From contig JAHPZA010000006.1 in NCBI GenBank assembly GCA_019058445.1, forward strand, positions 768,001-832,000: a stretch of 64,000 nucleotides of DNA, in the 5' to 3' direction. A model generated the notes under the pieces. That model was not told where the DNA came from. It was given only the letters and a program-made list of their open reading frames with translations, and made no database searches. Below are positions 43,446 to 64,000 of this stretch, one piece after another. A program made the position numbers and the translations under genes. The stretch's first letter is position 1. Each line of letters begins with the position of its first letter. Source of the stretch: Promethearchaeota archaeon (GTDB taxonomy: Archaea > Asgardarchaeota > Lokiarchaeia > Sigyniarchaeales > SOKP01).

Positions 43446-44672
43446 TTAGGGTAATGCTTGATCTAATAATTCCGTCAGATCAACCATTTTAAGATTTGAG
43501 TTTGAATCCTTAATTGCATCAGATAAGTTCCGATAACAGAAAGGACAGATACTAACTATTATTTCCGCACCTGTTTCCTCAGCCTCCTCAATCCGAGCGT
43601 TTGAGATGGCCAACGCTAATTCAGGAAAACCCTTTTTTACGCCTCCTCCAGCTCCACAGCATTTTGCATTTTGCTTAATAGTTTTCATTTCTACAATATC
43701 TGCCATCTTACTTAGAAGTTCTCTTGGCTCCTCATATAGGGGATTAACTCCCTCTTTCATTCCTGAATTTCTTCCCGTATGGCAAGGATCGTGGTATGTC
43801 GCTTTAAGTCCTAAGTGTTTTAGTTGTATGTTTTTCTCATTTATTATATCTCGGACTAATTCAACTGTATGAAGTACTTCTATACCTAAATCTTCAAGAT
43901 AATCAGTATAGTCAGTTTTAAGGGTTCTATAACAGCCAGCACAACTTGTTAGGATCTTCTTAACACCGCTCTTTTTGAATAATTCATAATTTTTTGTCGC
44001 AACTGCATTAAAACCTGTAATATCTCCAGTTCTCTTCCCAACACTTCCACAACATACTTCTTTGTCTCCAAATACAGAAAAATCAACCCCTAATTTTTTA
44101 AGGACTTTAGCGGTATTTATGGCTACAGTCTGAATCTCCGGAGTTAACGCAGCAGTACACCCTACAAAATAAAGATACTCTGCTGTCTCAGAACTCGCAT
44201 CTTTCACCTTAAAATCGAGTTTATCTATCCATGTCCCTTTTTCTTTATTATCTCGCTGGTAAGGATTTAATAATTCAACCATTGCTTTATTCATTGGTAC
44301 ATGCGCTTCCAAACCACATCCCGCATCTACTAATTCAGCCCTCAAAGCTTCATAAATAGCGGCGTTATCCATATCATAGGCGCAAGTTTGAGCACATGCA
44401 TTACATGTTGGACATTGATAAATCACTTCAGCCATGTCCTTACTCAGTTCTAACTTTCCCTGCCAAAGAGAACGAATAATTTGCATTTTTCCTCTTCCGA
44501 AGAAAGGTTCAAAACCAGGAGTATTTTCTCTTGCTACACATACTCCCCACTTCGGAGGATCATCTGTGTAATCTGTGGCTTCTCTACAATCTCCGCAACC
44601 GATACATTGCAGGATTATGTCTCCCATTTTGGCAAAATGCTTAAATTTTTCTTTTGGTTCAAATTCGGTTAT
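43446..44672 (-). CDS. Fe-S oxidoreductase with ferredoxin and CCG domains (GlcF/HdrD-like)
   Basis: CIGCGDC, CPTCNACAQTC, YFVGC, VCCG, YHDPCH, KCCGAGGG, CPFC. Start uncertain: ATA at 44672 behind SD AGGTGAT, or ATG at 44627. Confidence 0.88.
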   Translation of the reverse strand: MTEFEPKEKFKHFAKMGDIILQCIGCGDCREATDYTDDPPKWGVCVARENTPGFEPFFGRGKMQIIRSLWQGKLELSKDMAEVIYQCPTCNACAQTCAYDMDNAAIYEALRAELVDAGCGLEAHVPMNKAMVELLNPYQRDNKEKGTWIDKLDFKVKDASSETAEYLYFVGCTAALTPEIQTVAINTAKVLKKLGVDFSVFGDKEVCCGSVGKRTGDITGFNAVATKNYELFKKSGVKKILTSCAGCYRTLKTDYTDYLEDLGIEVLHTVELVRDIINEKNIQLKHLGLKATYHDPCHTGRNSGMKEGVNPLYEEPRELLSKMADIVEMKTIKQNAKCCGAGGGVKKGFPELALAISNARIEEAEETGAEIIVSICPFCYRNLSDAIKDSNSNLKMVDLTELLDQALP

Positions 44673-44754
44673 TTTTTATCACCTATATTTCTTCTTCGTT
44701 ATTATAATTTAAAATATCCTCTTCATTATTTTAATTTTTAAAAAAAACTAATTC

Positions 44755-46290
44755 TTATTCCTCGTCTTTTACTAAATGTTTTGTATAATCATAATCATAG
44801 CTATACAAATGAAATTTATTGGGACTAAGCAAGAAATCAGGATCTACAGTTTTTTTAATATCCTTAAAGAACTGCACAAATTCAGGAGTATAGGCATCAG
44901 CTTCTAAAATTGATTGTGAAATTGCTTCTCCCAACCAATAATGAATCCCTCCATATCTTACTTGCGCCCTTAATTTTTTATGCCATAATTTCATTGAAAT
45001 ATCCCGTACATCATCTACATTATCCGCGTTAAAGCCCCCTACAAGTACACAATTTCCATTAGGTAAAAAATATATAATCGTAGACCAAAATGACATAGCT
45101 CCAGGTGGAAATTCATCGCGGTGTTTGCTATCAAATTCTTGCGCTTTTTTCGATATTGTTGGCAACTTAGAGATTGGAATTTTATGACACGTTGTACAGC
45201 TTACTTTTGGAGGGGCGACAGAGATATACTTTTGAAAGTAATTAAACGTTTGCTTTAAATCCCAGCTCCATTCTTTTTTAGTTTCCATGCTGGGATCGAC
45301 TTCACTCCATTCAAAAGGTCGTGCAAGTTCCTCCTTTAACATAATATCATTAACTATTTCTGTGTATACATCAAGAATTCTTAGATCAGATGCTTCTAAT
45401 AATACTTGCATGGCTGGGCCTCTTAATCTCGGGCGCTTAGCAGGTTTCACTTCAACGTTACCTGCTAATAGCTGAATTACCATAAGCGGTAATCCGGATA
45501 AATCGCGTAAACCATCGCCAACTTTATTACGTATTTTATGTGCATATTCAAATACTTTTTGATAATTATTTTTCTTAAAGATATAACTTAGTTGCCTTTT
45601 ATGGGGAGGATCTGGAAATAATCTAAGATAGGCTTTGGTTTTAATACCTAAGGTTCCTACATCTCCCATGAACAAACCGGTAAAATCCGGCGCAACACCA
45701 TATCTGCAAAAAGGAGCTGCGTATTTATTTGCCGCTGCCCCAGTTCTAATTATAGTACCTTGCGGATTAGGGAGGACGACCTCAACGCCTAAACATATAT
45801 CAGGCACTAGTCCATATTTAGTAGAGCCCCCGCCTGCGGTACTATTGGATAAACCTCCTCCGATCGTGGCAGCATATCCACTCCCTGGACCGATAACACC
45901 AGTAGTGTATCCGCTTGGATGTAATTCTGAAAGTAATTTTCCCCATGTTACTCCACATTCCACAACACAATAATAGTCATCATAGTTAATTTCTATAATT
46001 TTATCCATTCTCGTAAGGTCTAATAAAATTCCTCCTTCTGTCACTGAACCACCAACTAAATCCGCACCGCCCCCTCGGGGCACCATGTGGATTTTATACT
46101 TATTTGCAAGCTTCACAATTTCAGACACCTCTTCCGGGGTTTCAGGACGGACAATTATATCTGCCCATCGGTCTGGAAATGAGGGATCAACGTTTCGAGA
46201 ATAGGCGGCTTTCATGAAATCCTTATCAGTAATATAGTCCGCTCCTACTACTTTTTCAATTTCATGATATATATCTTTTATTTTTGACAG
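44755..46290 (-). CDS. FAD-binding oxidoreductase (VAO/GlcD-like), paralogue 3
   Basis: Same motifs as the paralogues; directly upstream of the CCG Fe-S gene. Proposed start CTG at 46290 (ORF track uses GTG at 46299). Confidence 0.88.
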   Translation of the reverse strand: MSKIKDIYHEIEKVVGADYITDKDFMKAAYSRNVDPSFPDRWADIIVRPETPEEVSEIVKLANKYKIHMVPRGGGADLVGGSVTEGGILLDLTRMDKIIEINYDDYYCVVECGVTWGKLLSELHPSGYTTGVIGPGSGYAATIGGGLSNSTAGGGSTKYGLVPDICLGVEVVLPNPQGTIIRTGAAANKYAAPFCRYGVAPDFTGLFMGDVGTLGIKTKAYLRLFPDPPHKRQLSYIFKKNNYQKVFEYAHKIRNKVGDGLRDLSGLPLMVIQLLAGNVEVKPAKRPRLRGPAMQVLLEASDLRILDVYTEIVNDIMLKEELARPFEWSEVDPSMETKKEWSWDLKQTFNYFQKYISVAPPKVSCTTCHKIPISKLPTISKKAQEFDSKHRDEFPPGAMSFWSTIIYFLPNGNCVLVGGFNADNVDDVRDISMKLWHKKLRAQVRYGGIHYWLGEAISQSILEADAYTPEFVQFFKDIKKTVDPDFLLSPNKFHLYSYDYDYTKHLVKDEE

Positions 46291-46359
46291 TCTATTCACC
46301 TTTTTTTTAATTTTGCTCTTATATTATTTAAATTTTATTGAGTATAATCTTAAATTTTA

Positions 46360-48204
46360 TTATTCAAATACCTCTAATTTATTACTTCCTTTTTTTAATT
46401 TAATTAAATTTTTTATCTGAGCATCCCACGTATTATTTTTTACTTTATCCCATTCCTGTTTTAACCTAAATTTTTGAATCATGCAATTATTCGATCGAGG
46501 TAATTCTGTTTTAAATTCAATATATCTGGGAACTATATGAGATGCCATATTTCGGATTAAATAATTATATAAATCCTCATAAGAGAGTTTGCTTCCTTTC
46601 TTTAATACAACACAAAGTTTGATTTCTTCATCAAATCTTTCTTCACTTGGTACTCCGATAACTGCGGATTCGACTATATCTGGATAAGCATTTACAATAT
46701 TCTCAATCCGATTTGCAAATACAATTTCTCCATGTTTATTGATAAGATTATTTTTATTTCCAACAAAATAAACAAAGCCTTCAGTATCTCTGTAGGCATA
46801 ATCGCCCGTATGAATCCACCTATTTCTCCCCTCTTTCGTTAAAGTTTCTACCGATAATTTATAATAATCCCAAGAAATTGGCAATCTACATCTTGATATT
46901 ATTTCTCCTACATTATTTGGTCCGGGTGGTAATGTATTCCCATGTGGGTCGACAATTTTTAGCTCATATCCACTTAATGATTTTCCTATTGAACCAAGCT
47001 TTCCCCCTTTAGATCCTAATTTATTAATAGTTATTCCAATAGCCTCTACAAGTGTCCATAATTCATAGATTGGAATGTTAAATCTCCCCTCGAATTTCTC
47101 CCATATATCTTTAGTTGCTCCGGAACCAAAAGCCCATTTGATTGAATGAGTTCTATAATCATCTCTAGGTGGTTGGTTTAATAAATCAGAAAGATACATT
47201 CCGAAATATAACAAACCAGTGGGATGATATTTTGCAATATCATCCCAGAAGGTTGAAGGTTTAAATTTCTCAGTAATTAAGACTGATGCATTATAAAAGA
47301 TTGCGGGTAAAATACCCCAATACTGTGCAGAACCTAGATATAAAGGGAAGGGGCAATAAATTAAATGAGCTTGATTAAGTCCTGCTATATCTACCAATTC
47401 TTTTCCAATATTAATCCCCGTAAGAACGAAATTGTTTCTATATGTTACTCCTTTCGGTTTTCCAGTATTTCCAGAGGTGTAGTTTATTTGCATAGTATGC
47501 CAGTGTTTCACAATCACTTTTGGATTTTTCTCATTCGAAGTATAGATATCTTTATAATCAACAAAATTTTCATTAAACTCAAACCCTTCAGGAGCATTTC
47601 TAATGATAATAGCTTTAACTTCCGGTAAATTTCCGCTGATTTCTCTAAATTTTACATAATATTCGTAGTCCAATATTAAAATTTCAGTATCACTATTTGA
47701 CAAGATATATTCCAACATCTCACCCCTGTAAGATGTGTTCACTCCAACGAAGACACTGCCAGTTTTAATGATTCCGAACCAGCAAAATATATAATCGGGG
47801 CAATTTGGAAGCATAACAGAAATATTTGGCCGCCTTAATTTTTTCTTTTTAATTATATTCTGAAGACCATTTGCGATTTTATTTGAATTTATATGAATAT
47901 CTTGATATGAATAAATCTCGTCTTTAAAAAAGAGAAATGGTTTATTTTTATTTTCAGCCGCCTTGCTCTGGAGAAGCTTCGGAATAGTAGCGTTTTCTAC
48001 TCCATATCGGTCAATAACATCGTATAATTCATCACGTCTACTTATTACTAATGTATCATCGATAATTTCAATATTAACATCTTCTTTATTTGAAAACGGA
48101 AAAGAACTATCTTTAGCTATTTTGCTTGGAATATAAACCCAGATGCTTTCATAGCCGCCGCCCCCAGATTTTTTCCTAGTAATTTTTCCCTTTGCTCTTC
48201 TCAT
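46360..48204 (-). CDS. Fusion: N-terminal AbrB/SpoVT/MazE-like swapped-hairpin domain + CaiC-like AMP-binding domain with degenerate motifs
   Basis: N-terminus GKITRKKSGGGGYESIWVYIPSKIAKDSSFPFSNKEDVNIEIIDDTLVISR; ligase core YTSGNTGKPKG and HTGDY. Confidence 0.75.
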   Translation of the reverse strand: MRRAKGKITRKKSGGGGYESIWVYIPSKIAKDSSFPFSNKEDVNIEIIDDTLVISRRDELYDVIDRYGVENATIPKLLQSKAAENKNKPFLFFKDEIYSYQDIHINSNKIANGLQNIIKKKKLRRPNISVMLPNCPDYIFCWFGIIKTGSVFVGVNTSYRGEMLEYILSNSDTEILILDYEYYVKFREISGNLPEVKAIIIRNAPEGFEFNENFVDYKDIYTSNEKNPKVIVKHWHTMQINYTSGNTGKPKGVTYRNNFVLTGINIGKELVDIAGLNQAHLIYCPFPLYLGSAQYWGILPAIFYNASVLITEKFKPSTFWDDIAKYHPTGLLYFGMYLSDLLNQPPRDDYRTHSIKWAFGSGATKDIWEKFEGRFNIPIYELWTLVEAIGITINKLGSKGGKLGSIGKSLSGYELKIVDPHGNTLPPGPNNVGEIISRCRLPISWDYYKLSVETLTKEGRNRWIHTGDYAYRDTEGFVYFVGNKNNLINKHGEIVFANRIENIVNAYPDIVESAVIGVPSEERFDEEIKLCVVLKKGSKLSYEDLYNYLIRNMASHIVPRYIEFKTELPRSNNCMIQKFRLKQEWDKVKNNTWDAQIKNLIKLKKGSNKLEVFE

Positions 48205-48222
48205 TTTCTATCGAAACTCCAT

Positions 48223-48309
48223 TTTACGACCGTAAATTTGGGTAGTAAAATCAAAACATTTTTGTTAGTGCTTTTGTGTTTTTTTTCATTTATAAAGCTT
48301 TTTGTGTTT
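48223..48309 (-). promoter_or_regulatory. Putative promoter/operator region of the AbrB-ligase gene
   Basis: TTTATAAA box at 48289-48296 with a purine-rich BRE-like side on the minus strand. Flanked by direct repeats GCTTTT(T)GTGTTT (48270, 48297). Palindrome TTTACG-AC-CGTAAA at 48223-48236. Confidence 0.5.
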
Positions 48310-48447
48310 GATGAGGTAAAAATATTTGAATGGTGTTATAAATAGCAAATTGTCGAGATTAAGGGGAGGAATATTATTTTTTGTTATTCACATAAACCAT
48401 TTAAATAATTTAGTAAATTAAAAAGAATTATATTTTGGAGATGTAAA

Positions 48448-49698
48448 TTAAACTTTTTCTAGAATATGGACGCAAAGTGCAGCTTCTCCAAAACCAATAT
48501 TTCCGCCTCCATTCTCAGCAAGAGCTAATCTTGGATTTTTAACTTGTCTTTCACCTGCTTCACCTCGCAATTGAACTACTAATTCATATAATTGTGCCAG
48601 TCCTGAAGCGCCTATTGGATGGCCTCTGGAGAGTAAACCTCCACTTGGGTTGACTGGGATATTTCCATCAAGCGCAGTAGCTCCACTCTCCGTAAATGGA
48701 CCACCTTGCCCTATAGGACAAAATCCCATCTGTTCTATTTGGTGAATCTCCCCAAAGGCAGTTGCATCATGTACTTCAGCAACATCTATATCTTGAGGAC
48801 TAAGTCCAGCCATTTCATAAACGGCCTTAGAAGCTCGATGAGGAACATCATCCGTTCTCCATGAGCCTGATCTTAAAACAGATGCTCGAATTAAAACAGC
48901 TCTATCTGTCGGATGTTCCTTTAAAAACTTTTCAGAGCATAAAATTGCAGCAGCAGCACCATCCCCAACAGGTGCACACATCGATCTTGTGAGAGGGTAA
49001 GCGACTTCATAATCCTCCATAGCCTCCTCTACAGTTAATGGAAAAGTGTACTGAGCTAATGGATTTAAGGTTGAATTATTATGATTTTTTGCAGCCACGA
49101 AAGCAAGATGCCGTTTAGTGGTTCCGTATTTCTTCATGTGATTTCGAGCTGCCATAGCATAGAGATCCATGAACGCCGAATGTCCCCCCTTTTTACCCTT
49201 GGTTTGTTCAGAACTTCCTTCCTTAGCTTTCTGTGCTTTCTGCTTCTCAGCCATTTTTTTCAGTTGTTCTATTAGACTTCGTGTTCTTTCCACATCGGTG
49301 TAGGTGATAAAGCCGCTCATCATTTTTTTCCTATCCTCTTGGTAAATTTTTTCTGCACCAATCGCTAATACACAATCATAAAGCCCTGATTTGATTTGCA
49401 TCCATGCTCCATGAAAAGCAGTACTTCCGCTGGCGCAAGCATTCTCTACATTAATTATGGGTATCTTATCAATCTTATTGGCAGAAAGAGCCACTTGTCC
49501 TCGAATGCTATGTTGAAATTCATACATACCCCAAGCAGAATTGGAAAACCACGCTGCTTCTAACTCATCAAAACCTACCTCACCATTATCATTTTTGAGG
49601 GACTTAAGAGCTTCCCCCGTTAACTTTTTTATACTTTTATCAAGAAATTTACCGAATTTGGTCATTCCAACGCTATATACATATACTTTGTCACTCAT
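48448..49698 (-). CDS. SCP2-type thiolase family protein
   Basis: NVENACASGSTA, AEVHDAT, NPSGGLLSRGHPIGASG, ENGGG. Confidence 0.9.
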   Translation of the reverse strand: MSDKVYVYSVGMTKFGKFLDKSIKKLTGEALKSLKNDNGEVGFDELEAAWFSNSAWGMYEFQHSIRGQVALSANKIDKIPIINVENACASGSTAFHGAWMQIKSGLYDCVLAIGAEKIYQEDRKKMMSGFITYTDVERTRSLIEQLKKMAEKQKAQKAKEGSSEQTKGKKGGHSAFMDLYAMAARNHMKKYGTTKRHLAFVAAKNHNNSTLNPLAQYTFPLTVEEAMEDYEVAYPLTRSMCAPVGDGAAAAILCSEKFLKEHPTDRAVLIRASVLRSGSWRTDDVPHRASKAVYEMAGLSPQDIDVAEVHDATAFGEIHQIEQMGFCPIGQGGPFTESGATALDGNIPVNPSGGLLSRGHPIGASGLAQLYELVVQLRGEAGERQVKNPRLALAENGGGNIGFGEAALCVHILEKV

Positions 49699-49792
49699 GT
49701 TTTTCCTCTTTTTCGATTTACCAATAAAAAGTAATTAGTATAAAATAAATTTATAATTTTAGGTTTTAAAAATTAAAAGAATATTACACAAG

Positions 49793-51469: not shown

Positions 51470-51592
51470 TCTATATCCCTTTTTTATAATTTTTTTATTA
51501 GCTTTTTTTTCAAAAATTTTTTAATTTAATATATTATTTTGAATTTCTTTTAAAAAAAAGAAAGTTTTGTTGTAAAATTTGATTTAAGAAAG

Positions 51593-52612: not shown

Positions 52613-52627
52613 AATTGATACACTCCC

Positions 52628-54166
52628 TTATTCATCCTTCTTAACGTGCTGTAAAGTATCATATTCATATGAGTAAAGATGGAACTTATTTGGACTTAAC
52701 AGATAATTTGGATCAACAGTTTTCTTTATATCTTTAAAGAATTGTAAGAATTCTGGAGTATATGCACCAGCTTCCACAATAGATTGAGATATTGATTCAC
52801 CCAACCAATAATGGACCCCTCCGTAATGGACTTGATGTCGTAATTTTTTGTGCCACATATTCATAGCTTTATCACGTTCCTCATCAATATTATCAGCATG
52901 AATACCTCCGACTACCACTAAATTTCCATTAGGTAAAAACATTAAAATCATAGCTAATAAATCTACATTTCCTACGGGAAAGTCTTTCACATTATTCTTG
53001 TAAAATTCAGTACTTTTTCTTGCAACTTCGGATAAACTTGAGATAGGGATTTTATGACAAGTTGTGCAGCTGACTTTTGGTGGAGCAGGAGAAATAGCCA
53101 TATGAAAAAAGTTAAATGCATATTTTAACGTAAACTTCCAATCTTTCGATAATTCGGCATCTAGATTTACTTCTTGCCATTCAAAAGGTCGGGCAACCTC
53201 ATCTTTTGTCATAATTTCATCGATCTGCTCCAAATAAATATCTAAGATTCTTTCATCAAATGCCTCTAATCGAATTGACATAAGCGGCCCTCTTAAGCGT
53301 GGTTTTTTTGGGGGCTTAAATTTATCTTCAACGTTTCCTGCTACAAGTTGTACAACTACTGCAGGATATGCAACTAAGTCTAAAATTGCGTCTCCAACTT
53401 TCTTACGTAATTCATGTCCTAATTCGAATACTTTATCATAATCATTTTTTTTAAATAAATAGAAGCGATGTGCTTGATATGGTCCCAATGGAGCCAATCT
53501 CAGAAATGCTTTAGTTTTTATACCCATAGTTCCAACATCGCCCATAAATAACCCTGTGAAGTCAGGAGCAACCCCATATCTACAGAATGGAATAGCATAT
53601 TTGTTCGCTGCGGCTCCAGTTCTTAGAATGGTTCCCTGTGGGTTTGGAAGAACTACTTCAACGCCTAGGCATATATCAGGCACCAAACCAAATTTTGTAG
53701 AACCAAATCCTGCAGTTGCGTTTGAAAGGCCTCCTCCGATCGTTGCTGCATATCCACTTCCTGGACCAAGAACACCCGTTGTATATCCTCTAGAATGCAA
53801 CTGTGAAACTAAATCACCCCAAGTGATTCCGCATTCTACCTCAACGAAGAAATCATCTTCATTAATTTCTATAATATGATTCATGCGTGTAAGATCAATT
53901 AGTATGCCCCCTTCGGTAACTGACCCACCAACTAAATCGGCTCCTCCACCACGAGGCACCATTTTAATTTTATATTTATTAGCAATTTTTACGATTTCTG
54001 AAACTTCTTCTGTGGTCTCAGGCCTCACGATCATATCAGCCCATCGGTCGGGAAAGGCGGGATCGACATTTCGAGAGTATGCAGCTTTCATGAAGTCTTT
54101 ATCGGTGACATAATCGGTGCCAACTGCCCCTTCTATTTCTTTATAAGCATCTTTCACTTTCGATAT
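52628..54166 (-). CDS. FAD-binding oxidoreductase (VAO/GlcD-like), paralogue 4
   Basis: Same motifs as the paralogues. Proposed start ATA at 54166 (ORF track uses GTG at 54175). Confidence 0.88.
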   Translation of the reverse strand: MSKVKDAYKEIEGAVGTDYVTDKDFMKAAYSRNVDPAFPDRWADMIVRPETTEEVSEIVKIANKYKIKMVPRGGGADLVGGSVTEGGILIDLTRMNHIIEINEDDFFVEVECGITWGDLVSQLHSRGYTTGVLGPGSGYAATIGGGLSNATAGFGSTKFGLVPDICLGVEVVLPNPQGTILRTGAAANKYAIPFCRYGVAPDFTGLFMGDVGTMGIKTKAFLRLAPLGPYQAHRFYLFKKNDYDKVFELGHELRKKVGDAILDLVAYPAVVVQLVAGNVEDKFKPPKKPRLRGPLMSIRLEAFDERILDIYLEQIDEIMTKDEVARPFEWQEVNLDAELSKDWKFTLKYAFNFFHMAISPAPPKVSCTTCHKIPISSLSEVARKSTEFYKNNVKDFPVGNVDLLAMILMFLPNGNLVVVGGIHADNIDEERDKAMNMWHKKLRHQVHYGGVHYWLGESISQSIVEAGAYTPEFLQFFKDIKKTVDPNYLLSPNKFHLYSYEYDTLQHVKKDE

Positions 54167-54325
54167 TTTTATCACCCATATTATAACTTATAATTAAATT
54201 ATTATATTCCTAAGAGCTTTATAAAAGTTTACATATACAAGTTAGTTATAAATTGAGCTTATAAAAGAAGCAATAGTATAACAGAAACTTAAGAAGGTAA
54301 TGTTTAGGCTAGAAATTTCGCTATC

Positions 54326-55264: not shown

Positions 55265-55395
55265 TTTATTTCCCTGAAATTGATAGTAATAAATTGTTTG
55301 ATATTTAATATAAGATTATAACTTTTACCAATAAAAAGAGAATGAATACTAGATATTAAAGTAAAAAGAAAAAGTTAGAGAATTACGTTCATATT

Positions 55396-55983
55396 TCATT
55401 TTGGAAAACTTGGTAGTCCCCTTTCTCTTTGAACGCCAAAAGTGTTAAGTGCCCAGCTTACTAGATTGTATTGTCCAATCGTGAAAACAACATCCATCAA
55501 TTGTTTTGTATTATACCGTTCACTGAGGGCATTCCAAGTCGCATCGCTAATAAAGGCATCGGAGAAAAGTTCATCCACCGCTCGAATTAATGTAGCTTCG
55601 AAAGGATCCCATCCAGTAGCGTCTGCTCCTTCTGTGATGCGCTTAATATCTTCATCATTAAGTCCGGCACGCTTTCCAATAATCACATGTTGACCCCATT
55701 CATATTCTGAGCCACAAAGCCAACCAATGCGCAGAATAAGAATTTCCTTCTCCCGTATAGGAAGAGCTGATTTAAATAGAACATGATTTCCAAAGACTCG
55801 CCATCTTTTATATAATTTCGAATAATTAGCCAAGGTTTTCACAATATTGATAACTGGATTACCTGTTTTTTGTAAACCCTCTATAAGGATTCGAGCATCT
55901 TCATCCCATTCACTTTCTTCTAAAGGTTTTATTCGAGGTTCAGCAAGGTGTTTTGGGGTTTTTCTTTCAATTTTTTTTTCCAT
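55396..55983 (-). CDS. Carboxymuconolactone decarboxylase/AhpD-like family protein
   Basis: REKEILILRIGWLCGSEYEWGQH, SDATWNAL, FTIGQY. Confidence 0.85.
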   Translation of the reverse strand: MEKKIERKTPKHLAEPRIKPLEESEWDEDARILIEGLQKTGNPVINIVKTLANYSKLYKRWRVFGNHVLFKSALPIREKEILILRIGWLCGSEYEWGQHVIIGKRAGLNDEDIKRITEGADATGWDPFEATLIRAVDELFSDAFISDATWNALSERYNTKQLMDVVFTIGQYNLVSWALNTFGVQRERGLPSFPK

Positions 55984-56107
55984 TTTTTATTAACCCTTTC
56001 AATTATTTTGCCAATTTTTTAAGAATTTATTTGCTTTTTATTAATTAAAAAATTTATAAAAACGTGATCAATTTATTTAATTCTAAGATAGAATATCGTG
56101 ATTAATA

Positions 56108-58729
56108 GTGAAAATCCTTAAAAGTTCTTATTTAAATTGTGTTGCCTTTCCTTTAGGTGGTATTGGAACAGGAAACATCTCATTGGCAGGTGATGGCAGC
56201 TTAAGGCAATGGCAAATCGTTAATAATGTATATCATTTAGGTTATGTTCCCTCATCATTTTTTTTCATTCAAACTCGCACAGAAGATTCAGATAATTGGA
56301 TTTTTAAACTCCTTGAAAAGAAGATTAAACTTCCCAAAGACTATAAACCTGCCGAAAGTGTAAATGATTTCATAATTCCAAACGATGTCTTAACAAGACA
56401 TGAGAATTATGAGTGCTTTCATGATTTAGAATTTAATGGTGAATATCCTATTGCATTAATTAAATTCTCTGAAGATGAAGTACCTGTTGATATCAAACTT
56501 GAAGCTTGGAATCCAATGATTCCTTTAGATATCAAAAATTCAAGTATACCGGTAATTGTATTTAGTTTTAAGATTAAGAACCCAAATGAAACTAAGTCAG
56601 TGAAAATGAGAATTGGAGGACAAATATTAAATTTTATTGGTTGGGACGGGGCCTCTGAAATGGATTTGAATTTCTATCCTAATTTTTATCGAAATTTAAA
56701 CCAATCTACTGCCCAGGATAATTATAAAGGTATTTATATGCACTCAGAGAATCCCGTGCTTGATGATTCACTCCAAGGAGAGATAATATTTGCATCCTTA
56801 GAAAGAGATTGTTTGATTTTTTCTAATGTGTCCAATTTAAATGAATTATTAAATGACTCAAATATGAAAACTAAACAAATTGAAAGAACTGAGCCCTCTT
56901 CTCATGGAAAAACATGGTGTGGGGCATTAATTAACGAATTTTCCCTAGCTCCAATGGAAGAAAAAAATATAATTTTCCTTTTAGGTTGGTCATTTCCCAA
57001 TAGATATCAAAATTGGGATAAAGAATTATATCGCAAAGTTAAAGTTGATCAAAAAAGTAAGTTTTGGCTAGGGAACGGATATAATCGATGGTTCAGAAAT
57101 ACTGAGGAGGTGATCGAGTATACAATTGCCAATTTTAACTTTCTTAAAGAAAGTACTAAAAATTTTCATAATTTGCTCTTTAATACAACACTACCTAAAG
57201 AGATCATAAGCTCTGTTTCCGCGACAATGTCAACTATACGAAGTCCTTCATGTTTTTTAACAAATAAAGGAGAGTTCATGGGTTTTGAAGGCTGCTGTGG
57301 AGCTAGCACAGCATTTCATACTGAGGAAACTGGAGGATGCTGTCCAATGAATTGTACGCATGTTTGGAATTATGCTGTCACCCAATCAAGGCTCTATCCC
57401 TCATTAGAAATCTCTATGCTAGAAAATGAATTTAAACGTATAACTCGAAGGGGAATGTTACCTCATAGATTGGTTGTCCCTACCTATTTGCCACAACTAG
57501 AGGACAAACGAATTGGGGGACCCGATCATCCCGCTATGGATGGTTTGTTTGGATGTATTTTAAAAACATACCGGATGTTAATAACTACCAATGATTTCGA
57601 ATGGTTCAAGAAAGCGTATCCTAAAATTAGAGACTTAATGAATTATATTTTCCGAGAATGTGATCCCGATGAGCAGGGAATTATTGAGAGCGAACAACCA
57701 AATACTTATGATATTTCTTTCTATGGAAAAAATTTATTTATAGGAGCTCTATACCTTGCAGCGTTAAAAGCCTTTGGAAGAATGGCAGAAATGGTATATG
57801 ATAGTGAATTTAAAGAGAAATGTGACAAACGATTTACTAATGGAAAAAAGAATTATGACGATTCTTTATGGAATGGAGAATACTGGATTCAAAAATATAA
57901 TGAAAAGAAACATAAAAGCTCTCAATATGGTACTGGCTGTCTTTCGGATCAACTTTTTGGTCAGTTCTGGGCGTATATGCTCGAACTTGGTTCCCTCTTA
58001 CCTGATGATAAGATTAAAGTTACTTTAGACAATATAATGAAATACAATTTTAAGGAGAATTTTTACGGGATTGTTCAGAAACCGAGAGTTTTTGCTTCTG
58101 AACATGACAAGGGATTATTGGTTTGTTCTTGGCCTAAAGGTGGAGAGCCTCAATTTCCATTCTTATACGCACATGAAGTGTGGACAGGAATAGAATATGA
58201 GATTGCTGCGCTCTTGCTCGAACACGGAAGAATTGATAATGCTTTAAAAATTATGAAAGCTGTTCGTGAACGCTATAATGGAGAGTATAGAAATCCATGG
58301 AATGAAGTAGAATGTGGAGATCATTATATTAGAGCAATGTCTTCTTGGAGAGTTTATGAGGGAGCTCTAGGGTATTATTGGAATGCACTTGAGAATCGTA
58401 TCAATTTTTTGCCTCTATTTACCAATAATCCAATGCAAGCATTATTTATTACAAATTCTTCTTGGGGGTTGATTAGGAGAAAAGATGATTCACTCAACCT
58501 GACAATTACTATTAAACCTTTTTTTGGAGAATTAAAATTGAAAATCTTAAGAACATGGAAACCGAAAGAAGACTTTGATCATGTAATTGAAGCGATCCTA
58601 AACGATCTAAGTTTAAATGATGTGATGGATATCGAAATTTCAAATGAAATTCTTGAAATTAAATTCAAGGAAATTTTACAAGTTGGTCCCAACAAAGAAT
58701 TAGAGATAAAAATTAAATCAAAAAAATAG
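56108..58729 (+). CDS. GH116 beta-glucosidase (non-lysosomal glucosylceramidase/GBA2-like)
   Basis: PLGGIGTG, GEYP, GFEGC, NCTHVWNY, QPNTYD, WNGEY, DQLFGQ, EVWTGIEY, NPWNEVECGDHYIRAMSSW. Confidence 0.9.
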   Translation: MKILKSSYLNCVAFPLGGIGTGNISLAGDGSLRQWQIVNNVYHLGYVPSSFFFIQTRTEDSDNWIFKLLEKKIKLPKDYKPAESVNDFIIPNDVLTRHENYECFHDLEFNGEYPIALIKFSEDEVPVDIKLEAWNPMIPLDIKNSSIPVIVFSFKIKNPNETKSVKMRIGGQILNFIGWDGASEMDLNFYPNFYRNLNQSTAQDNYKGIYMHSENPVLDDSLQGEIIFASLERDCLIFSNVSNLNELLNDSNMKTKQIERTEPSSHGKTWCGALINEFSLAPMEEKNIIFLLGWSFPNRYQNWDKELYRKVKVDQKSKFWLGNGYNRWFRNTEEVIEYTIANFNFLKESTKNFHNLLFNTTLPKEIISSVSATMSTIRSPSCFLTNKGEFMGFEGCCGASTAFHTEETGGCCPMNCTHVWNYAVTQSRLYPSLEISMLENEFKRITRRGMLPHRLVVPTYLPQLEDKRIGGPDHPAMDGLFGCILKTYRMLITTNDFEWFKKAYPKIRDLMNYIFRECDPDEQGIIESEQPNTYDISFYGKNLFIGALYLAALKAFGRMAEMVYDSEFKEKCDKRFTNGKKNYDDSLWNGEYWIQKYNEKKHKSSQYGTGCLSDQLFGQFWAYMLELGSLLPDDKIKVTLDNIMKYNFKENFYGIVQKPRVFASEHDKGLLVCSWPKGGEPQFPFLYAHEVWTGIEYEIAALLLEHGRIDNALKIMKAVRERYNGEYRNPWNEVECGDHYIRAMSSWRVYEGALGYYWNALENRINFLPLFTNNPMQALFITNSSWGLIRRKDDSLNLTITIKPFFGELKLKILRTWKPKEDFDHVIEAILNDLSLNDVMDIEISNEILEIKFKEILQVGPNKELEIKIKSKK

Positions 58730-58982
58730 TATTTCTATAGATGGTCCTACCAGTATTGATAGTTTGATTACCCGAATTGAATCTTATGTTGATGTTAGTT
58801 GATTTCCAGTTAGCCTAAATTTCAATCAAGTAATACACTTATTTTGCTTATTAAAAAATTATTAGTTAATAAAAACGTGAAAAATTTTTTTCATTAATGG
58901 AAAAAATTGTAATGAATTATATAGATCTTTTACTCTAATATTAAACAAAAAAAAATAATACTATGTTTTTAAGGTCAATATT

Positions 58983-60275
58983 ATGACCCAAATAAATGAA
59001 GATTCACCTGTAAGATCGCCGGGTTATTTCAAATATATGATGATCATCTTAATGCTTGTCTTAATCTTAGATAACTATACTCAATTTTATAGTGCTATAA
59101 TACCTTCAAAAGTAGTTGAAGAATTTTTAGGACATTATCCACAAAATGTTGCCAATTCAATCTTTGCTTTCTCATTAGCAATAGCTTCAATAGGTAGCTA
59201 TATTGTTTTTCTTGTATGGTATTCATCAGACAGAGTTGGAAGGAAATTTTTATTAGTCATATCCGTATTTGGAATGGCATTTGCTTCATTAGGTATTTTA
59301 TTGTCGAGAAATATTGTTGAATATACCATATTCCGCCTTCTTCTTGCTATTTTTGTTGGTTCGGATATTTGGTTGATTTATATTAATGAGGAATCTCCCC
59401 CTGAAAAAAAAGCATTTTATGTAAATATAGCTTTAATAGGGGGTATGATTGGTATATTGCTAATGGCAGTTTTTCGTTCAATTTATATCACCGACACATC
59501 TCCAGTGGGAGCTTGGAGGGGTATGACATATTTTTCGATCCTACTTGGAATTCCATTAGGAATTCTAGTAGCATTAACAATCAAAGAAACATCTAAATAT
59601 GAAGAAATCAAACAAAAAAGGCTCACAAGAGAAGATAGAGCAAAACTATTAAAGAAAAACATTAAAACCATTTTTAAGTCTGACAATCGAAAAGCCTATA
59701 TCACTACTTTAACTGTTCATTTCATATGGAATTTAAATGGGATATATATTAATTTAGCCGAATTATACATGGCACAAAGCCCTAATCTAAAAGAGGGAGA
59801 TATTAACATAGTAGTATTAATCTTAGTTCCGTCAATAGCGGGAGGTTTTCTTACTACGGGATTATTAGCAGATAAAATTGGGAGGAAACCATTACTGTAT
59901 GTTTATATTGCTTTATTCTTCGTGGGAGCTATAATTTTTCTTGTGGGAGCTGCAACACCAGGTATCGCATTAGTTTTAGTTTGTACAGGGCAGGCTATGA
60001 TTAATGTAGCCTATTGGGGAACATGGGTTCTTATTAGTATAATTACTATAGAATTAATTCCAACAGATGCGAGAGGGACTGGAACGGGCTTTAAATCTTT
60101 AATAGGAACATTAGCGGGAACTACTGCTTTAATAGTTACTGGTATAATCACCTACTTTTTCTCTTTATTTGTCGTATTTGTTGTTTTCGTAATAATTCTC
60201 TTATTTAATTTACCGTTAATCTATAAATTTATGATAGAAACTCTAGGCACGGATTTAAGCCAGATTAAATCATAA
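58983..60275 (+). CDS. MFS transporter (paralogue of 16818..18110)
   Basis: SDRVGRK, ADKIGRK, ELIPTDARGTGTG; 12 TM helices. Confidence 0.9.
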   Translation: MTQINEDSPVRSPGYFKYMMIILMLVLILDNYTQFYSAIIPSKVVEEFLGHYPQNVANSIFAFSLAIASIGSYIVFLVWYSSDRVGRKFLLVISVFGMAFASLGILLSRNIVEYTIFRLLLAIFVGSDIWLIYINEESPPEKKAFYVNIALIGGMIGILLMAVFRSIYITDTSPVGAWRGMTYFSILLGIPLGILVALTIKETSKYEEIKQKRLTREDRAKLLKKNIKTIFKSDNRKAYITTLTVHFIWNLNGIYINLAELYMAQSPNLKEGDINIVVLILVPSIAGGFLTTGLLADKIGRKPLLYVYIALFFVGAIIFLVGAATPGIALVLVCTGQAMINVAYWGTWVLISIITIELIPTDARGTGTGFKSLIGTLAGTTALIVTGIITYFFSLFVVFVVFVIILLFNLPLIYKFMIETLGTDLSQIKS

Positions 60276-60309
60276 AATTTTTTATATTTATTTTTTCCCT
60301 ATTATTTTA

Positions 60310-61605
60310 TTAGGTAAATTCTGGGAAAACAAGTATAAAATTGGTACCTTTTGTATGATCTCCCTTAATCCTATCTGCAATATAAAGACTTCCATTAAAG
60401 GATTTCGTCAATGTATGAATTAATGTGAGGCCTATCCCCATCCCTTTAGAGCCTGATCGTTTTTCGTAATCTCCTTGGAGTATATTCTCTTTCATATTAT
60501 TTGGAATACCTATACCATTATCAATGAATTCGATTTTAATTAATGAGCCTTCCTTATCTTTTAACTTAGAAACTCTAACTTGAATCTCAATTTGGTCATT
60601 TTCATTGTGGTCAATAGCATTGATTAATATATTTTCGAAAATATCTAATAACAGGTCATTCGCCGCGATGAAGAAATTCTCCAGCTTATTTTCAAACTTT
60701 ATATTGACCTTTTTATCAGTAGACTTTTCTGATACAAATTCAATGGCAGAGTGGAGGATAGAGATTACTTCAATTTTCTCGAGTTCCTCGGAACATTCTA
60801 GATCTGATAAAGTACAAACGTTTTTTATTAATTCTGCCCCTCTAAATACATGAGTTTGAATCTTCTTTACCATCTCATTGAATTTTTCTGCGTCTTCTAT
60901 ATTTTTAAAGATATAAGGAAGTATTCCAACGGAACCTTGAATCGCCTGAAGTATATTTCGCATGTCATGAGCGAATATCCTTCTATAGAACTCTGCTCTA
61001 TTATAAGCTTCTCTATACTTTATTTCAGATTCCTTTAATAACTGATCAGCTCGATTTTGCTTGATAATTCTCCACATCTTATCCATAAAAAGAGTAAGTT
61101 GGCGTGTGTCAGAATCATCGTAAGGATCATCCTTATTACCTACTCCTACAATAGAAACTACTTTATTATCATCATCAAATATTGGAACGCTCATATGACG
61201 ATATACGGGAAAATGGCCTTCAGGATAACCTTTCTTATGTGGGTTATTAGAATAGTCGTTATGTATTACTGGCTTTTTTTCACGAAAACAATCTGCCCAA
61301 ATTCCAGCTTCGGTAATAGGATAATGAGGTACTTTTTCAGCAGTGCAGTTCCTTAAAACGTCCTTTGACCATGTAAATAATGATAATGTATTTTGATCCT
61401 CATTTACAAAATGGAGATAACCAACCTTACTTCTTGTTAATCTTACACATTCCTCTAAAGTATAATCAATATAATCTTTTTCTGAAAGCCCTTTTAGTTG
61501 AGTCATTTTTAAAAGAGCAGTTAATCTCTCTTCATCGAATTTAAGTTTTTCCAATAGACCTTCATAATTCTTATTCTTATCCTTTACTTTTCCATCATTT
61601 ATCAT
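60310..61605 (-). CDS. GAF-domain sensor histidine kinase
   Basis: GAF domain (LTRSKVGYLHF...PVIHNDY..GYPEGH..MSVP..GVGNK); H-box FAHDMRNILQ; DNGIGI; GMGIGL. ATG at 61605 follows AAGGTG. Confidence 0.9.
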   Translation of the reverse strand: MINDGKVKDKNKNYEGLLEKLKFDEERLTALLKMTQLKGLSEKDYIDYTLEECVRLTRSKVGYLHFVNEDQNTLSLFTWSKDVLRNCTAEKVPHYPITEAGIWADCFREKKPVIHNDYSNNPHKKGYPEGHFPVYRHMSVPIFDDDNKVVSIVGVGNKDDPYDDSDTRQLTLFMDKMWRIIKQNRADQLLKESEIKYREAYNRAEFYRRIFAHDMRNILQAIQGSVGILPYIFKNIEDAEKFNEMVKKIQTHVFRGAELIKNVCTLSDLECSEELEKIEVISILHSAIEFVSEKSTDKKVNIKFENKLENFFIAANDLLLDIFENILINAIDHNENDQIEIQVRVSKLKDKEGSLIKIEFIDNGIGIPNNMKENILQGDYEKRSGSKGMGIGLTLIHTLTKSFNGSLYIADRIKGDHTKGTNFILVFPEFT

Positions 61606-61785
61606 CGCGGCACCTTTATTTAATACTGTATACCTCAAAAATATTATCAATTGGTGATTTTTATTTCTTTTCATTTAAAAAATAAAGTTAACAGCTCTTA
61701 TAGGATTCAGTTTGAGCATTTTATTTAATGCTACGATAATAGAAATTATTAAAAAAAAATTAATATTTTATTTGAGAGCCGTTGT

Positions 61786-62910
61786 CTATATTCGATTTAT
61801 AATTTCATCAAAGAACTGATTAAGTAAATTTGCATCTAATGCCTCAGGGGCAAAAGCTCCTTTTCGTTTCACTCTATCCAGGACAATTGCTTCAGATACT
61901 ACTGCGATTGGAACTGCGGTTGATCTTGTCATATCTGCTTGCTCAGAGACTGCATCAGAGCGCAAATTTTCAATCTCAGTTTCTTGCTTTCCATTTCGAA
62001 TACCAATTACTTTAACCTGTATTCCACCTGGGAATTTTAAGCTCTCCAAATCATAAAAAGAAAAGGCTTTGGGAGATTCAAGGTATGCAGTAAGGAAAGT
62101 TAGCGGAGAAACTTTTTGACCCGCAATTTTAATCCGCTTGTCTGAATCAAGTCCTATATCCACAGCCTTTTGAATCAGTTGCACTAGCCCGAAAGGGACG
62201 ACATTTCCTTTACAAGATACAGTGCGGATGCCTGGAATATATCGTGGGATCGTAATTGGTTCACTGTGTCCAGAGTGAAAAACTGTGATAGTCCAATCTC
62301 CAAAGTGAATTTCTTCTGCCCCATCCAAAAATCCTATGACATTAACATAGCGACCGTCAATATAAGTTGGAATCTCTCCAAATTCTTCTCTGATAAAATC
62401 TAGCAAGGTTCCTGTTGACTCCTCTTCACGGTTAACTTCCGCACCTCCAGTAGCCCATACAACATGTGCTTCAAGAACTTCATCGAATCGAGATGCCAAA
62501 ATTTTGACCAACATATTTGTAAGTCCTGGAGATGTTCCTAAACCTGTTAATAATGTACGACTTGAATTTTTCCATTTCTCATCTTGTTCAAGTAAGGCTT
62601 TGGTAATTGCAATATCTGCACATGCATCAGTATAATGAATTCCCGCTTCGAGAGCCGCATCTGCTACTGCAGTGCCATGACGGTAATATGGAGCCACAAT
62701 ATTGACTATAAGATCAAGATCTTTAAGTTCATTAACTAAAGCAGGTTTATCATGAACATCTACAATTACTTCTTCAACATTTTTAATTTTTCCCGAAGTC
62801 TTTAAATCAAGCGCCACAACTCGTTCGACTTTGCCACCTTCAATGAGAGCTTTGCAAACACCTTTACCAATGAGTCCTTGAGCTCCAGCAACACCAATGG
62901 AAACTGTCAT
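61786..62910 (-). CDS. Saccharopine dehydrogenase-like NAD(P)-dependent oxidoreductase
   Basis: GAQGLIG, APYYRHG, AGIHYTD, GLGTSPGLTN, HSEPITIP, GAFAPE. Confidence 0.85.
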   Translation of the reverse strand: MTVSIGVAGAQGLIGKGVCKALIEGGKVERVVALDLKTSGKIKNVEEVIVDVHDKPALVNELKDLDLIVNIVAPYYRHGTAVADAALEAGIHYTDACADIAITKALLEQDEKWKNSSRTLLTGLGTSPGLTNMLVKILASRFDEVLEAHVVWATGGAEVNREEESTGTLLDFIREEFGEIPTYIDGRYVNVIGFLDGAEEIHFGDWTITVFHSGHSEPITIPRYIPGIRTVSCKGNVVPFGLVQLIQKAVDIGLDSDKRIKIAGQKVSPLTFLTAYLESPKAFSFYDLESLKFPGGIQVKVIGIRNGKQETEIENLRSDAVSEQADMTRSTAVPIAVVSEAIVLDRVKRKGAFAPEALDANLLNQFFDEIINRI

Positions 62911-63093
62911 TAAATGAACTCCTCATATTTAATTTTTTAACTATAGTTTGTTTAAAAAAATTAGAATGTTTGAAAATATAAATATTATGAGAAATTAGAA
63001 TGGTTTGTAATAATTTCAACTATTTGTCGAGAAGGTTTTATATCTCCTTTAAGGTAATTAAGATAAGTAAAAGTAATAGTTTTCAATAAATCA

Positions 63094-63894
63094 TTATCTT
63101 CCTGTAAATCTAGGTTCTCGTTTTTTCATGAAAGACTTCATCCCCTCTCCAAAATCCTTTGTACGTATGTTTTTACAATATAATTTGAATTCATGGTGTA
63201 AGGAAGGGATCATTTCATTAAACTGTGAGAAATTTAACATAGCTTTATTGTATCCAAGACATCTCGTAGGTAATTCAGCAATTTTTTCAAGATACTCTCT
63301 CGATTTCGCTTTAAATTCTGGCGCTGGATATACCTTAGTAATTAATCCAATATCCAAAGCTTCCTCTGCATCAAGATGTCTTCCCGTCATTATTATTTCT
63401 GTTGCTCTCCCAAACCCCACTATTCGAGGTAATAACCAACTTGCTCCGCATAATATGCATATAGCTCGTGATGCGCGATGATCTCCTATTCTTAAATCAT
63501 CGGCAGCTAAGCGAAAATCACAAGCTAAAGCTAATTCAAATCCTGCACCGAGGCAAAAACCATGGAGCAATGCGACCACTGGTTTTTGAATTTCTCGAAT
63601 AAGATAAAGCATTCTTTGATGGGGCATTTCTGAACCATCCTCTAGTGGTTTAAATTTTACGCCTTCTGGCCCCATACTCTTTAAATCATCTCCCGAGCAG
63701 AATGATTTACCATTACCTTCAATCGCTAGCACTCTTAAAGCTTTATTTCTCATATTTGCCTCAAGAACATCAACAACTTCCATGATTAAAGGGTATTGCA
63801 ACGCATTAAGATGATTTGGTCGGTTAAGAGTTATAGTACCAATCCCATTCTCAAATCTATATATAATATATTTATAATTTTTTTCTAAAGTAAT
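63094..63894 (-). CDS. Enoyl-CoA hydratase/isomerase (crotonase) family protein
   Basis: FCSGDDL, GAGFELALACDFR, LPRIVG, DFGEG..SF..KREPRFTGR. The conserved N-terminus (YKYIIYRFENGIGTITLNRPNHLNAL) lies upstream of the ORF-track start, implying an ATT start at 63894. Confidence 0.88.
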   Translation of the reverse strand: MTLEKNYKYIIYRFENGIGTITLNRPNHLNALQYPLIMEVVDVLEANMRNKALRVLAIEGNGKSFCSGDDLKSMGPEGVKFKPLEDGSEMPHQRMLYLIREIQKPVVALLHGFCLGAGFELALACDFRLAADDLRIGDHRASRAICILCGASWLLPRIVGFGRATEIIMTGRHLDAEEALDIGLITKVYPAPEFKAKSREYLEKIAELPTRCLGYNKAMLNFSQFNEMIPSLHHEFKLYCKNIRTKDFGEGMKSFMKKREPRFTGR

Positions 63895-64000
63895 ATAAAT
63901 CCCCTTTTGTTGAATAATTCTTATGATATATGGCTAATTGGGTATTATGTATGAATTACTAATAAATCTTCACAAACAAATGCTTTTTTTCGGGTATATA

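Follow-up and report, generated by a model that had tools for sequence, protein, structure and literature searches.

Introduction

ATT, ATC, ATA and CTG are formally allowed as start codons in NCBI translation table 11. In bacteria, AUU and AUA starts have been described for Escherichia coli pcnB and infC, the latter encoding initiation factor 3 (IF3), and for Staphylococcus aureus infC (AUA), cvfC1 (AUU), ccpN (AUA) and citZ (AUA), in all of which an AUH codon (H, A, C or U) stands behind a strong and well-spaced Shine-Dalgarno (SD) motif. The near-cognate starts of S. aureus gave about 10% of the output of AUG and depended on extended SDs (PMC13009471). The autoregulation of IF3 via its AUU is established, as cited in the same paper, and the gene for the factor discriminating against near-cognate codons itself has one. 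Here, start codons of this type were analyzed in a stretch of 64,000 nucleotides from a Promethearchaeota archaeon (genome G000, contig C6, positions 768001-832000; hereafter the window), in which a crotonase, a CCG-domain protein and two flavin adenine dinucleotide (FAD)-linked oxidase paralogues appeared to begin at ATT, ATA or CTG behind SD motifs.

A comparable arrangement is found in eukaryotes, where eIF1, the homologue of archaeal aIF1, sets the start stringency and is encoded behind a weak start site. Autoregulation of eIF1 through a poor-context AUG was described by Ivanov et al. 2010, as cited in PMC6237735, and near-cognate initiation in eukaryotes is controlled by eIF1 and eIF5 (PMC3326321). 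For archaea, the aIF1 of Sulfolobus solfataricus has been reported to discriminate against non-canonical starts (PMC6237735). Third-position variants of AUG (AUA, AUU and AUC) also serve as starts in the AT-rich genomes of mitochondria (NCBI tables 2 and 5). Among Asgard archaea, a single gene with a proposed ATT start was found in the literature, and no genome-wide account was found. It is the tubulin gene AtubA of Kariarchaeaceae, for which a "rare ATT start codon" behind a ribosome-binding site was proposed to repair an N-terminally truncated call (PMC13394414), and its start was also re-chosen by a second group (PMC13371889).

The source genome G000 is a metagenome-assembled genome (MAG) of 4.61 Mb in 10 contigs, with about 31% GC and 92.6% completeness. 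It contains a gene for ribosomal protein S28e, which identifies it as archaeal, and the relatives obtained with its crotonase protein are Promethearchaeota or Promethearchaeia MAGs, of the Loki class of Asgard archaea. G-numbers denote genomes, with 41 relatives of G000 included, L-numbers denote individual loci, C-numbers denote contigs of G000, and f1 is the family of G000.

Conserved N-termini upstream of the first canonical codons

The four near-cognate starts, which the original prediction had placed directly behind SD motifs in the crotonase gene (a), FAD-linked oxidase paralogues 4 (b) and 3 (c) and the CCG gene (d), were all found at their coordinates on the minus strand. The crotonase frame reads TAG(63936-63934) ... 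AAGGGGA(63906-63900) TTTAT ATT(63894-63892) ACT TTA GAA, and its first canonical codon is TTG 63801, with no ATG, GTG or TTG between the TAG and this TTG. Read from the ATT, the protein matched Pfam ECH_1 from residue 14 over model positions 2-250 of 251 (E=5.7e-51), and the presence of the full-length domain placed it in the crotonase/enoyl-CoA hydratase superfamily. As TTG 63801 is residue 32 and ECH_1 begins at residue 14, a start at the TTG would cut into the domain. The N-terminal peptide was conserved in 16 orthologous loci from the 41 related genomes and in 34 named MAG loci. Frame, ECH_1 coverage and orthologues thus bore out the claim that the conserved N-terminus of the crotonase lies upstream of its first ATG, GTG or TTG.

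The start column of the crotonase held ATG in some relatives and ATT or ATC in many others among about 40 Promethearchaeota loci, as in L051 (GAG AGA TTA ATG ATT TCA) compared with L047 (GAG AGA TTT ATC ATT TCA). In L052 (tga ATC ATT TCA) a TGA immediately preceded the ATC, and in L009 and L014 a stop was located 0-1 codon upstream of the ATT. The same-genus orthologues L003 and L004 retained AAGGGG-N6-ATT, and the sole ATT that they had in common with G000 was the one at 63894.

The CCG gene reads AGGTGAT AAAAA ATA(44672), with the next ATG at 44627. An in-frame TAA (44678-44676) lies two codons upstream of the ATA, and the last T of the SD is the first base of this TAA. The 15 residues between ATA 44672 and ATG 44627 were conserved in 16/16 orthologues, and the ATG itself was not conserved, the orthologues having CTA, TTA or ATA there. 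At the start column, ATG was found in eight orthologues, ATT in three, and ATC, ATA and GTT in one each, in addition to the ATA of G000. Case (d) had been regarded as the weakest of the four; this ranking is reversed, with (d) the best supported and (c) the weakest.

FAD paralogues 1 and 2 open with ATG-S-K-V-K, as had been stated; paralogue 4 reads GGGTGAT AAAA ATA(54166) TCG AAA GTG AAA, and paralogue 3 reads AGGTGA ATAGA CTG(46290) TCA AAA ATA AAA. The GTGs taken as starts in the open reading frame (ORF) track, 54175 in (b) and 46299 in (c), were confirmed to lie inside the SD. An in-frame GTG was also present in FAD orthologues starting with ATG, and the three residues that it would add were not conserved (VIK, VLN, VIN, VNR, VTN and others); judged from these alignments, the GTG results simply from the geometry of an SD placed 5 nt ahead of the start. 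For paralogue 4, the start column held ATA in the G003 orthologue (94% identity) and ATG in the G002 orthologue (85%), both behind the same SD GGGTGAT. A further paralogue of G002, L085, reads GG TGA AAT ACA ATA TCA AAA, and because of the in-frame TGA within its SD, ATA is the only possible start there. The nearest orthologue of paralogue 3 (L074 of G005, 81% identity) has ATG at the CTG column behind the same SD, and the choice between CTG 46290 and the in-frame GTG 46299 stands at about even odds.

Enrichment of ATA and ATT at one SD spacing across the genome

For the genome-wide profile of G000, five 5-mers (GGAGG, GAGGT, AGGTG, GGTGA and GTGAT) set to one register were used as the SD anchor. 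A start was counted as unambiguous when it was followed by at least 100 open codons, when an in-frame upstream stop was present within 30 codons, and when no in-frame ATG, GTG or TTG occurred from this stop to 10 codons downstream. At 6 nt past the A of GGTGA, the unambiguous ORF starts comprised 47 ATG, 22 ATT, 21 ATA, 17 TTG and 6 GTG, and every other codon was found at most three times, including the equally AT-rich AAA, AAT, TAT and TTA. The background per spacing was 2.3 for ATT and 1.75 for ATA (Poisson P = 1e-14 and 5e-16, respectively), and ATC showed no clear enrichment in this strict set. A tally of the codons behind SD motifs had been proposed as a check, and this ATT/ATA peak at 6 nt was its outcome. 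SD-led CTG sites numbered 3 genome-wide versus 0 at the control spacings, and in one orthologue pair an ATG of G009 corresponded to GGAGGTGA-N6-CTG in G000; from these sequences, CTG is weakly supported as a start codon in G000.

The spacing was exactly 6 nt at 43 of 79 ATH sites (ATA, ATC or ATT) and at 47 of 190 ATG sites, and thus sharper for ATH (chi-square P = 1e-4). The two groups were alike in SD length (5.6 vs 5.55 nt), and longer SDs offsetting the weak codon were not seen. The 51 listed sites of the form SD-N6-ATH belonged to unrelated genes and to no repeat family. Ser was mostly the residue after ATT or ATA and was also the commonest second residue at ATG starts, and Thr and Ala were common after ATA. 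Translational coupling as the cause of ATH starts was ruled out by the proximity figures, since about 21% of ATH starts lay at most 40 nt from an upstream same-strand ORF, compared with 44% of SD-led ATG starts.

After background subtraction, about 52 ATA and ATT starts were left, representing about 17% of the strict-SD-led unambiguous starts and, as a lower bound, about 1.4% of 3842 ORFs. When G000 was compared with 200 kb of the same-genus genome G009, 128 confident ATG starts in one genome had ATA, ATT or ATC in the partner in 5 cases and CTG in 2. The share of genes affected genome-wide would therefore range roughly from the lower bound of 1.4% to about 5%, with the orthologue comparison giving about 4-5%.

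Two other routes to such an estimate were discarded. Paralogue projection by all-vs-all BLAST of the 3842 stop-to-stop ORFs returned 440 ORFs conserved upstream of their first canonical codon; multidomain proteins and N-terminal variability made this set too noisy to count, and it served for examples only. Raw counts of GGTGA-N6-ATW (W, A or T) regardless of ORF context were swamped by coding periodicity, and no phylum-wide survey was drawn from them. In addition, ACG was enriched at spacings 5-7 behind SD motifs (5 unambiguous sites, with 0.25 expected), for instance in ORF o2404, which reads GGTGC ATTTAA ACG GCT AAG and had 20 paralogue hits. Several ORFs were also seen with ATT directly after an in-frame stop and with no SD.

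Distribution of the ATH peak in related genomes

The same pipeline was applied to control genomes, and sites were counted at spacings 5-7; outside G000 these counts are small, and they come from related genomes, which are non-independent samples of six lineages. In G032, from the same order and family f2, 800 kb with 31% GC contained 3 ATH sites on a background of 3, together with 31 ATG sites. There was no ATH peak in these 800 kb despite the same SD as in G000 (Fisher P = 3.7e-4 vs G000). As G032 has the same GC and the same SD, the peak of G000 is neither a compositional nor a pipeline artefact. No ATH peak was detected in the 400 kb of G033 (family f4, 53% GC) either, where 3 ATH sites were counted on a background of 6, with 7 ATG sites.

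The peak recurred in three other samples of 400 kb each. G009 and G005 of the same genus (31% GC) together had 8 ATH sites on a background of 3.2 and 11 ATG sites, G016 of another genus of family f1 (28% GC) had 9 on a background of 1.5 and 7 ATG sites, and G030 of genus g17 in family f2 (36% GC) had 5 on a background of 0.8 and 11 ATG sites. As far as the aligned sequences tell, ATG starts have repeatedly given way to ATA, ATT or ATC in the genus and family of G000, and the genes concerned have been kept. The proposal of SD-driven near-cognate initiation was therefore upheld for ATT and ATA by the orthologues, the spacing-specific enrichment and the same-GC control, and its extension to CTG just weakly.

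The start codon of aIF1 and the initiator tRNA

The aIF1 (SUI1) gene of G000, outside the window, reads AAGGTTGTGA AAC TAC AAA ATT AAA GAT ..., with a TGA in frame three codons upstream of the start. Its ORF contains no Met codon anywhere, and no ATG, GTG or TTG is present at the N-terminus. The arrangement AAGGTTGTGA-N9-ATT/ATC, with the TGA in frame, was conserved at aIF1 in 20/22 genomes of family f1. Elsewhere in the order, the aIF1 start was ATA in G030 and G034, TTG or GTG in most other f2 genomes, and ATG in G035 and f4. Read in this way, the gene of a fidelity factor is found to carry a conserved non-AUG start, as infC does. Genome-wide ATH use accompanied an ATH start on aIF1 among the few lineages sampled.

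The gene was found in 35/41 genomes, including all 17 of high quality, which ruled out the absence of aIF1 as the cause. Loss of KsgA/Dim1 was likewise ruled out, the gene being present in 41/41 genomes searched. The suggestion to inspect aIF1 was useful in that its own start codon turned out to be non-canonical; the expected change in fidelity residues was not obvious. No residue in the aIF1 alignment cleanly separated ATH-using from non-using lineages, and one lead, an Asn ahead of the D(K/R)RKWG loop where others have Ile or Val, is confounded by phylogeny. Separately, the aIF1 loop was found to have diverged in G000, G002 and G003 (KKLGSGGVVR vs KKCASGGTVR, and RGDHR vs QGDHR), and the Pfam SUI1 scores of these three proteins were 47-49 bits compared with 63-66 in the same genus.

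A sole initiator-tRNA-like gene was found in G000. Its features are A1:U72, a CAU anticodon and an anticodon stem with three G:C pairs, and two introns appear to interrupt it, one following the anticodon loop and the other within the T arm. A second initiator tRNA was not found by crude pattern and BLAST searches, in a genome where tRNA detection is poor: only about 19-23 tRNA genes were detected in 4.6 Mb with ARAGORN and Rfam, presumably few owing to introns. No rRNA genes were found in the G000 assembly.

Discussion

Near-cognate initiation is known in principle from bacteria, eukaryotes and mitochondria, and the comparisons above argue that translation in G000 in all likelihood does start at such codons, for the most part AUA and AUU, at times AUC and, perhaps in rare cases, CUG or ACG. 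Cases (a), (b) and (d) very probably start at ATT 63894, ATA 54166 and ATA 44672, as their alignments indicate. The hallmarks of SD-led AUH initiation of the infC/pcnB type were observed together: a conserved N-terminus upstream of the canonical codons (crotonase, CCG and aIF1), an SD at functional spacing (GGTGA at 6 nt in (d) and at 5 nt in (b) and (c), and an imperfect GGGGA at 5 nt in (a)), and interchange of ATG and AUH at the same orthologue column. In the proposed mechanism, pairing of the SD with the 3' end of 16S rRNA would fix the start codon in the P site, where the ordinary Met-tRNAi (CAU) would pair with codon positions A1 and U2 and the mismatch at the third position would be tolerated to a level set by aIF1. 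Proteins started at AUH would then begin with Met, and the output from AUH would be below that from AUG. The exact 6-nt spacing fits this proposal, because the weak codon-anticodon interaction would afford no positional slack. With aIF1 itself behind ATT or ATC, an infC-like feedback could set the level of AUH initiation that is allowed.

Several points weigh against this interpretation. All of its support is comparative and statistical. The 16S gene was absent from the assembly, and the anti-SD is an assumption based on what is known of archaea and on the motifs found to be enriched. A strict SD 5-mer at 4-9 nt preceded just about 10% of the unambiguous ATG starts, and the majority of genes in G000 must be initiated differently, either from leaderless transcripts or behind a weak SD. 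The SD of the crotonase, AAGGGGA (GGGGA, spacing 5), is an imperfect motif of the GGTGA type, and in (b) and (c) the in-frame GTG three codons upstream is a possible alternative start. CTG rests on its three unambiguous SD-led sites and two orthologue cases. One CCG orthologue, L090 (G002:C238), has GTT at the start column, which agrees with none of the known start rules; an error in the sequence, a start located elsewhere or still further relaxation of the codon could each account for it. AGGTGG-TAAAAA precedes this GTT, and a TAA stands in frame two codons ahead of it.

Four other explanations were weighed against genuine initiation by the ordinary machinery. Use of the nearest canonical codon (TTG 63801, ATG 44627, GTG 54175 and GTG 46299), with the conservation upstream being incidental, would agree with the starts of the ORF track; the GTG in (b) and (c) would add just three residues, and a TATA-like AT-rich stretch about 27 nt upstream of GTG 54175 makes a leaderless GTG start conceivable. 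This was considered quite improbable, because a start at TTG 63801 would lose the first ~20 positions of ECH_1 and would ignore 30 upstream residues conserved in about 40 loci, and because in the CCG gene it is the 15 upstream residues that are kept while ATG 44627 is replaced. For (b) and (c), the variable residues added by the GTG, its occurrence in ATG-starting orthologues and the stop at this place in L085 point the same way, and the lack of conservation from the GTG to the S-K-V-K column argues against leaderless initiation as well. A conserved N-terminus lacking a canonical start codon could also be read as a start-loss pseudogene or an untranslated gene. Such a reading is very improbable, as the frames were intact, the proteins were conserved across many genera with synonymous differences, and the decay of a pseudogene was not seen; moreover, the ATT/ATC start is fixed in aIF1 of 20/22 family genomes, and the enrichment is specific both in spacing and in codon (ATA and ATT).

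Sequencing, assembly or binning artefacts that changed ATG to ATA, ATT or CTG might be suspected in a MAG, and the single CTG 46290 and the GTT of L090 could be errors. As a general explanation, however, this is barely credible, since the same codons occurred at the same columns in independent MAGs from different studies and errors would not cluster 6 nt behind an SD. The remaining alternative accepts the AUH starts as real and ascribes them to a dedicated device, namely a modified C34, a second initiator-like tRNA or editing of the mRNA start codon. ATA and ATT far outnumbered GTG behind SDs, a third-position bias that recalls mitochondrial AUN starts, and 5-formylcytidine (f5C) is a mitochondrial example of a modified C34 on the initiator tRNA. 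The very incomplete tRNA set leaves room for a second initiator. A dedicated device is nevertheless unlikely, given the single initiator-like gene on C7 with CAU and A1:U72 and no variant in the crude pattern and BLAST searches; to our knowledge, no mRNA editing system is known in archaea.

Beyond AUH initiation by the ordinary initiator tRNA, it is possible, though short of probable, that start-codon stringency was reset in particular Promethearchaeia lineages and coupled to the start codon of aIF1 itself, with infC-like feedback. Under this tentative coupling, lineages with aIF1 behind AUU, AUC or AUA (f1, and g17 of f2) would be those in which AUH at 6 nt behind an SD serves as the start for several per cent of the proteome, and lineages such as G032 (aIF1 with UUG) or G033 (the one f4 genome sampled) would be those in which this is not seen. 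The f4 relatives of G033, G027 and G029, have AUG on aIF1. Low output of aIF1 might, on the same tentative footing, be either the cause or a buffer of a heritable and tunable relaxation of fidelity. Considered together, infC, eIF1 and aIF1 suggest that autoregulation of a proofreader via its own weak start may have arisen independently three times.

Compared to the described systems, the starts in G000 are of a kind already known from infC, pcnB, the S. aureus genes and table 11, and what is new is their scale, their domain, their occurrence in certain lineages but not in others of the same GC, and the fact that aIF1 is involved. Bacteria have 2-4 such genes per genome, versus roughly 1.4-5% of the genes in G000, and the discriminating factor is IF3 rather than the SUI1-fold aIF1. 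Different from S. aureus with its extended SDs, the SDs of ATH starts in G000 are no longer than those of ATG starts, and just the spacing is sharper. Eukaryotes rely on scanning and Kozak context, whereas in G000 the weak element is the codon, positioning is by the SD, and autoregulation is putative. Mitochondria use a modified tRNA-Met and mostly leaderless mRNAs, while the starts in G000 are SD-led, and AT pressure alone fails to explain the habit, given the same-GC genome G032 lacking ATH starts. AtubA concerns one gene of Heimdall-group archaea that was treated as a rarity, with no genome-wide or aIF1 observation.

These starts have a practical consequence, as gene finders limited to ATG, GTG and TTG would shorten a few per cent of the proteins in these Asgard genomes or overlook them altogether. 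Such errors affect domain assignment, structural studies and the trees of eukaryote-signature proteins, and one published tubulin has already been repaired by hand. Archaeal and eukaryotic initiation have a core of aIF1, aIF1A and aIF2 in common, and a natural lineage that uses ATA and ATT behind well-spaced SDs with roughly the frequency of AUG allows the setting of stringency to be studied by comparison. Further contrasts are provided by a relative of the same composition lacking ATH starts and by the non-AUG start on a fidelity factor. If the coupling to aIF1 is true, weak-start autoregulation of the fidelity factor would be convergent in all three domains, and initiation fidelity would be tunable in close relatives of eukaryotes.

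Feature coordinates and the surrounding gene cluster

Table 1. Genes, start codons and SD motifs considered in the window, and two genes elsewhere in G000 (C10 and C7, outside the window).
Feature	Position	Strand	Basis or remark
CCG-domain/4Fe-4S protein, coding sequence (CDS) read from ATA 44672	43446..44672	-	408 aa; Pfam CCG; orthologue column
CCG gene SD AGGTGAT	44678..44684	-	GGTGA 6 nt ahead of ATA, the genome-wide optimum
FAD-linked oxidase paralogue 3, CDS read from CTG 46290 (ambiguous vs GTG 46299)	44755..46290	-	orthologue L074
Paralogue 3 SD AGGTGA, in-frame GTG 46297-46299 inside	46296..46301	-	sequence
FAD-linked oxidase paralogue 4, CDS read from ATA 54166	52628..54166	-	Pfam FAD_binding_4; orthologues in G003 and G002
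Paralogue 4 SD GGGTGAT, in-frame GTG 54173-54175 inside	54171..54177	-	GGTGA 5 nt ahead of ATA
Crotonase (enoyl-CoA hydratase), CDS read from ATT	63094..63894	-	266 aa; Pfam ECH_1 and orthologue-conserved N-terminus
Crotonase ATT start codon	63892..63894	-	orthologue column
Crotonase SD-like AAGGGGA, 5 nt ahead of ATT	63900..63906	-	AAGGGG also in L003 and L004
In-frame TAG closing the crotonase frame upstream	63934..63936	-	sequence
FAD paralogue 1, ATG start behind AAGGGGA, for comparison	18211..19740	-	alignment
FAD paralogue 2, ATG start behind AGGTGGTGA, for comparison	36188..37720	-	alignment
aIF1 (SUI1) gene	C10:8794-9123	+	sequence and relatives L137-L168
Initiator-tRNA-like gene, sole one found	C7:~14171-14380	+	sequence features

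The flagged stretch contains a minus-strand cluster of acyl-CoA synthetases, a thiolase, a short-chain dehydrogenase, a nitroreductase/ferredoxin protein, FAD-linked oxidase paralogues, the CCG-domain protein and the crotonase. The original prediction had suggested that near-cognate starts tune subunit levels in this cluster; a cluster-specific role found no support, as the habit is genome-wide and family-wide and includes unrelated genes such as aIF1. Four FAD-linked oxidase paralogues are present in the whole window, with paralogues 2-4 being 66-69% identical to the first and paralogues 1 and 2 lying outside the flagged stretch. With paralogues 3 and 4 taken from their ORF-track starts (44755-46299 and 52628-54175), the four are packed into 36 kb on the minus strand. 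They are interleaved with five acyl-CoA synthetases, the CCG/4Fe-4S protein, an Old-Yellow-Enzyme/pyridine-nucleotide oxidoreductase fusion, the thiolase and the crotonase. By appearance, this expanded FAD-oxidase cluster looks like one of acyl-CoA or hydroxyacid metabolism.

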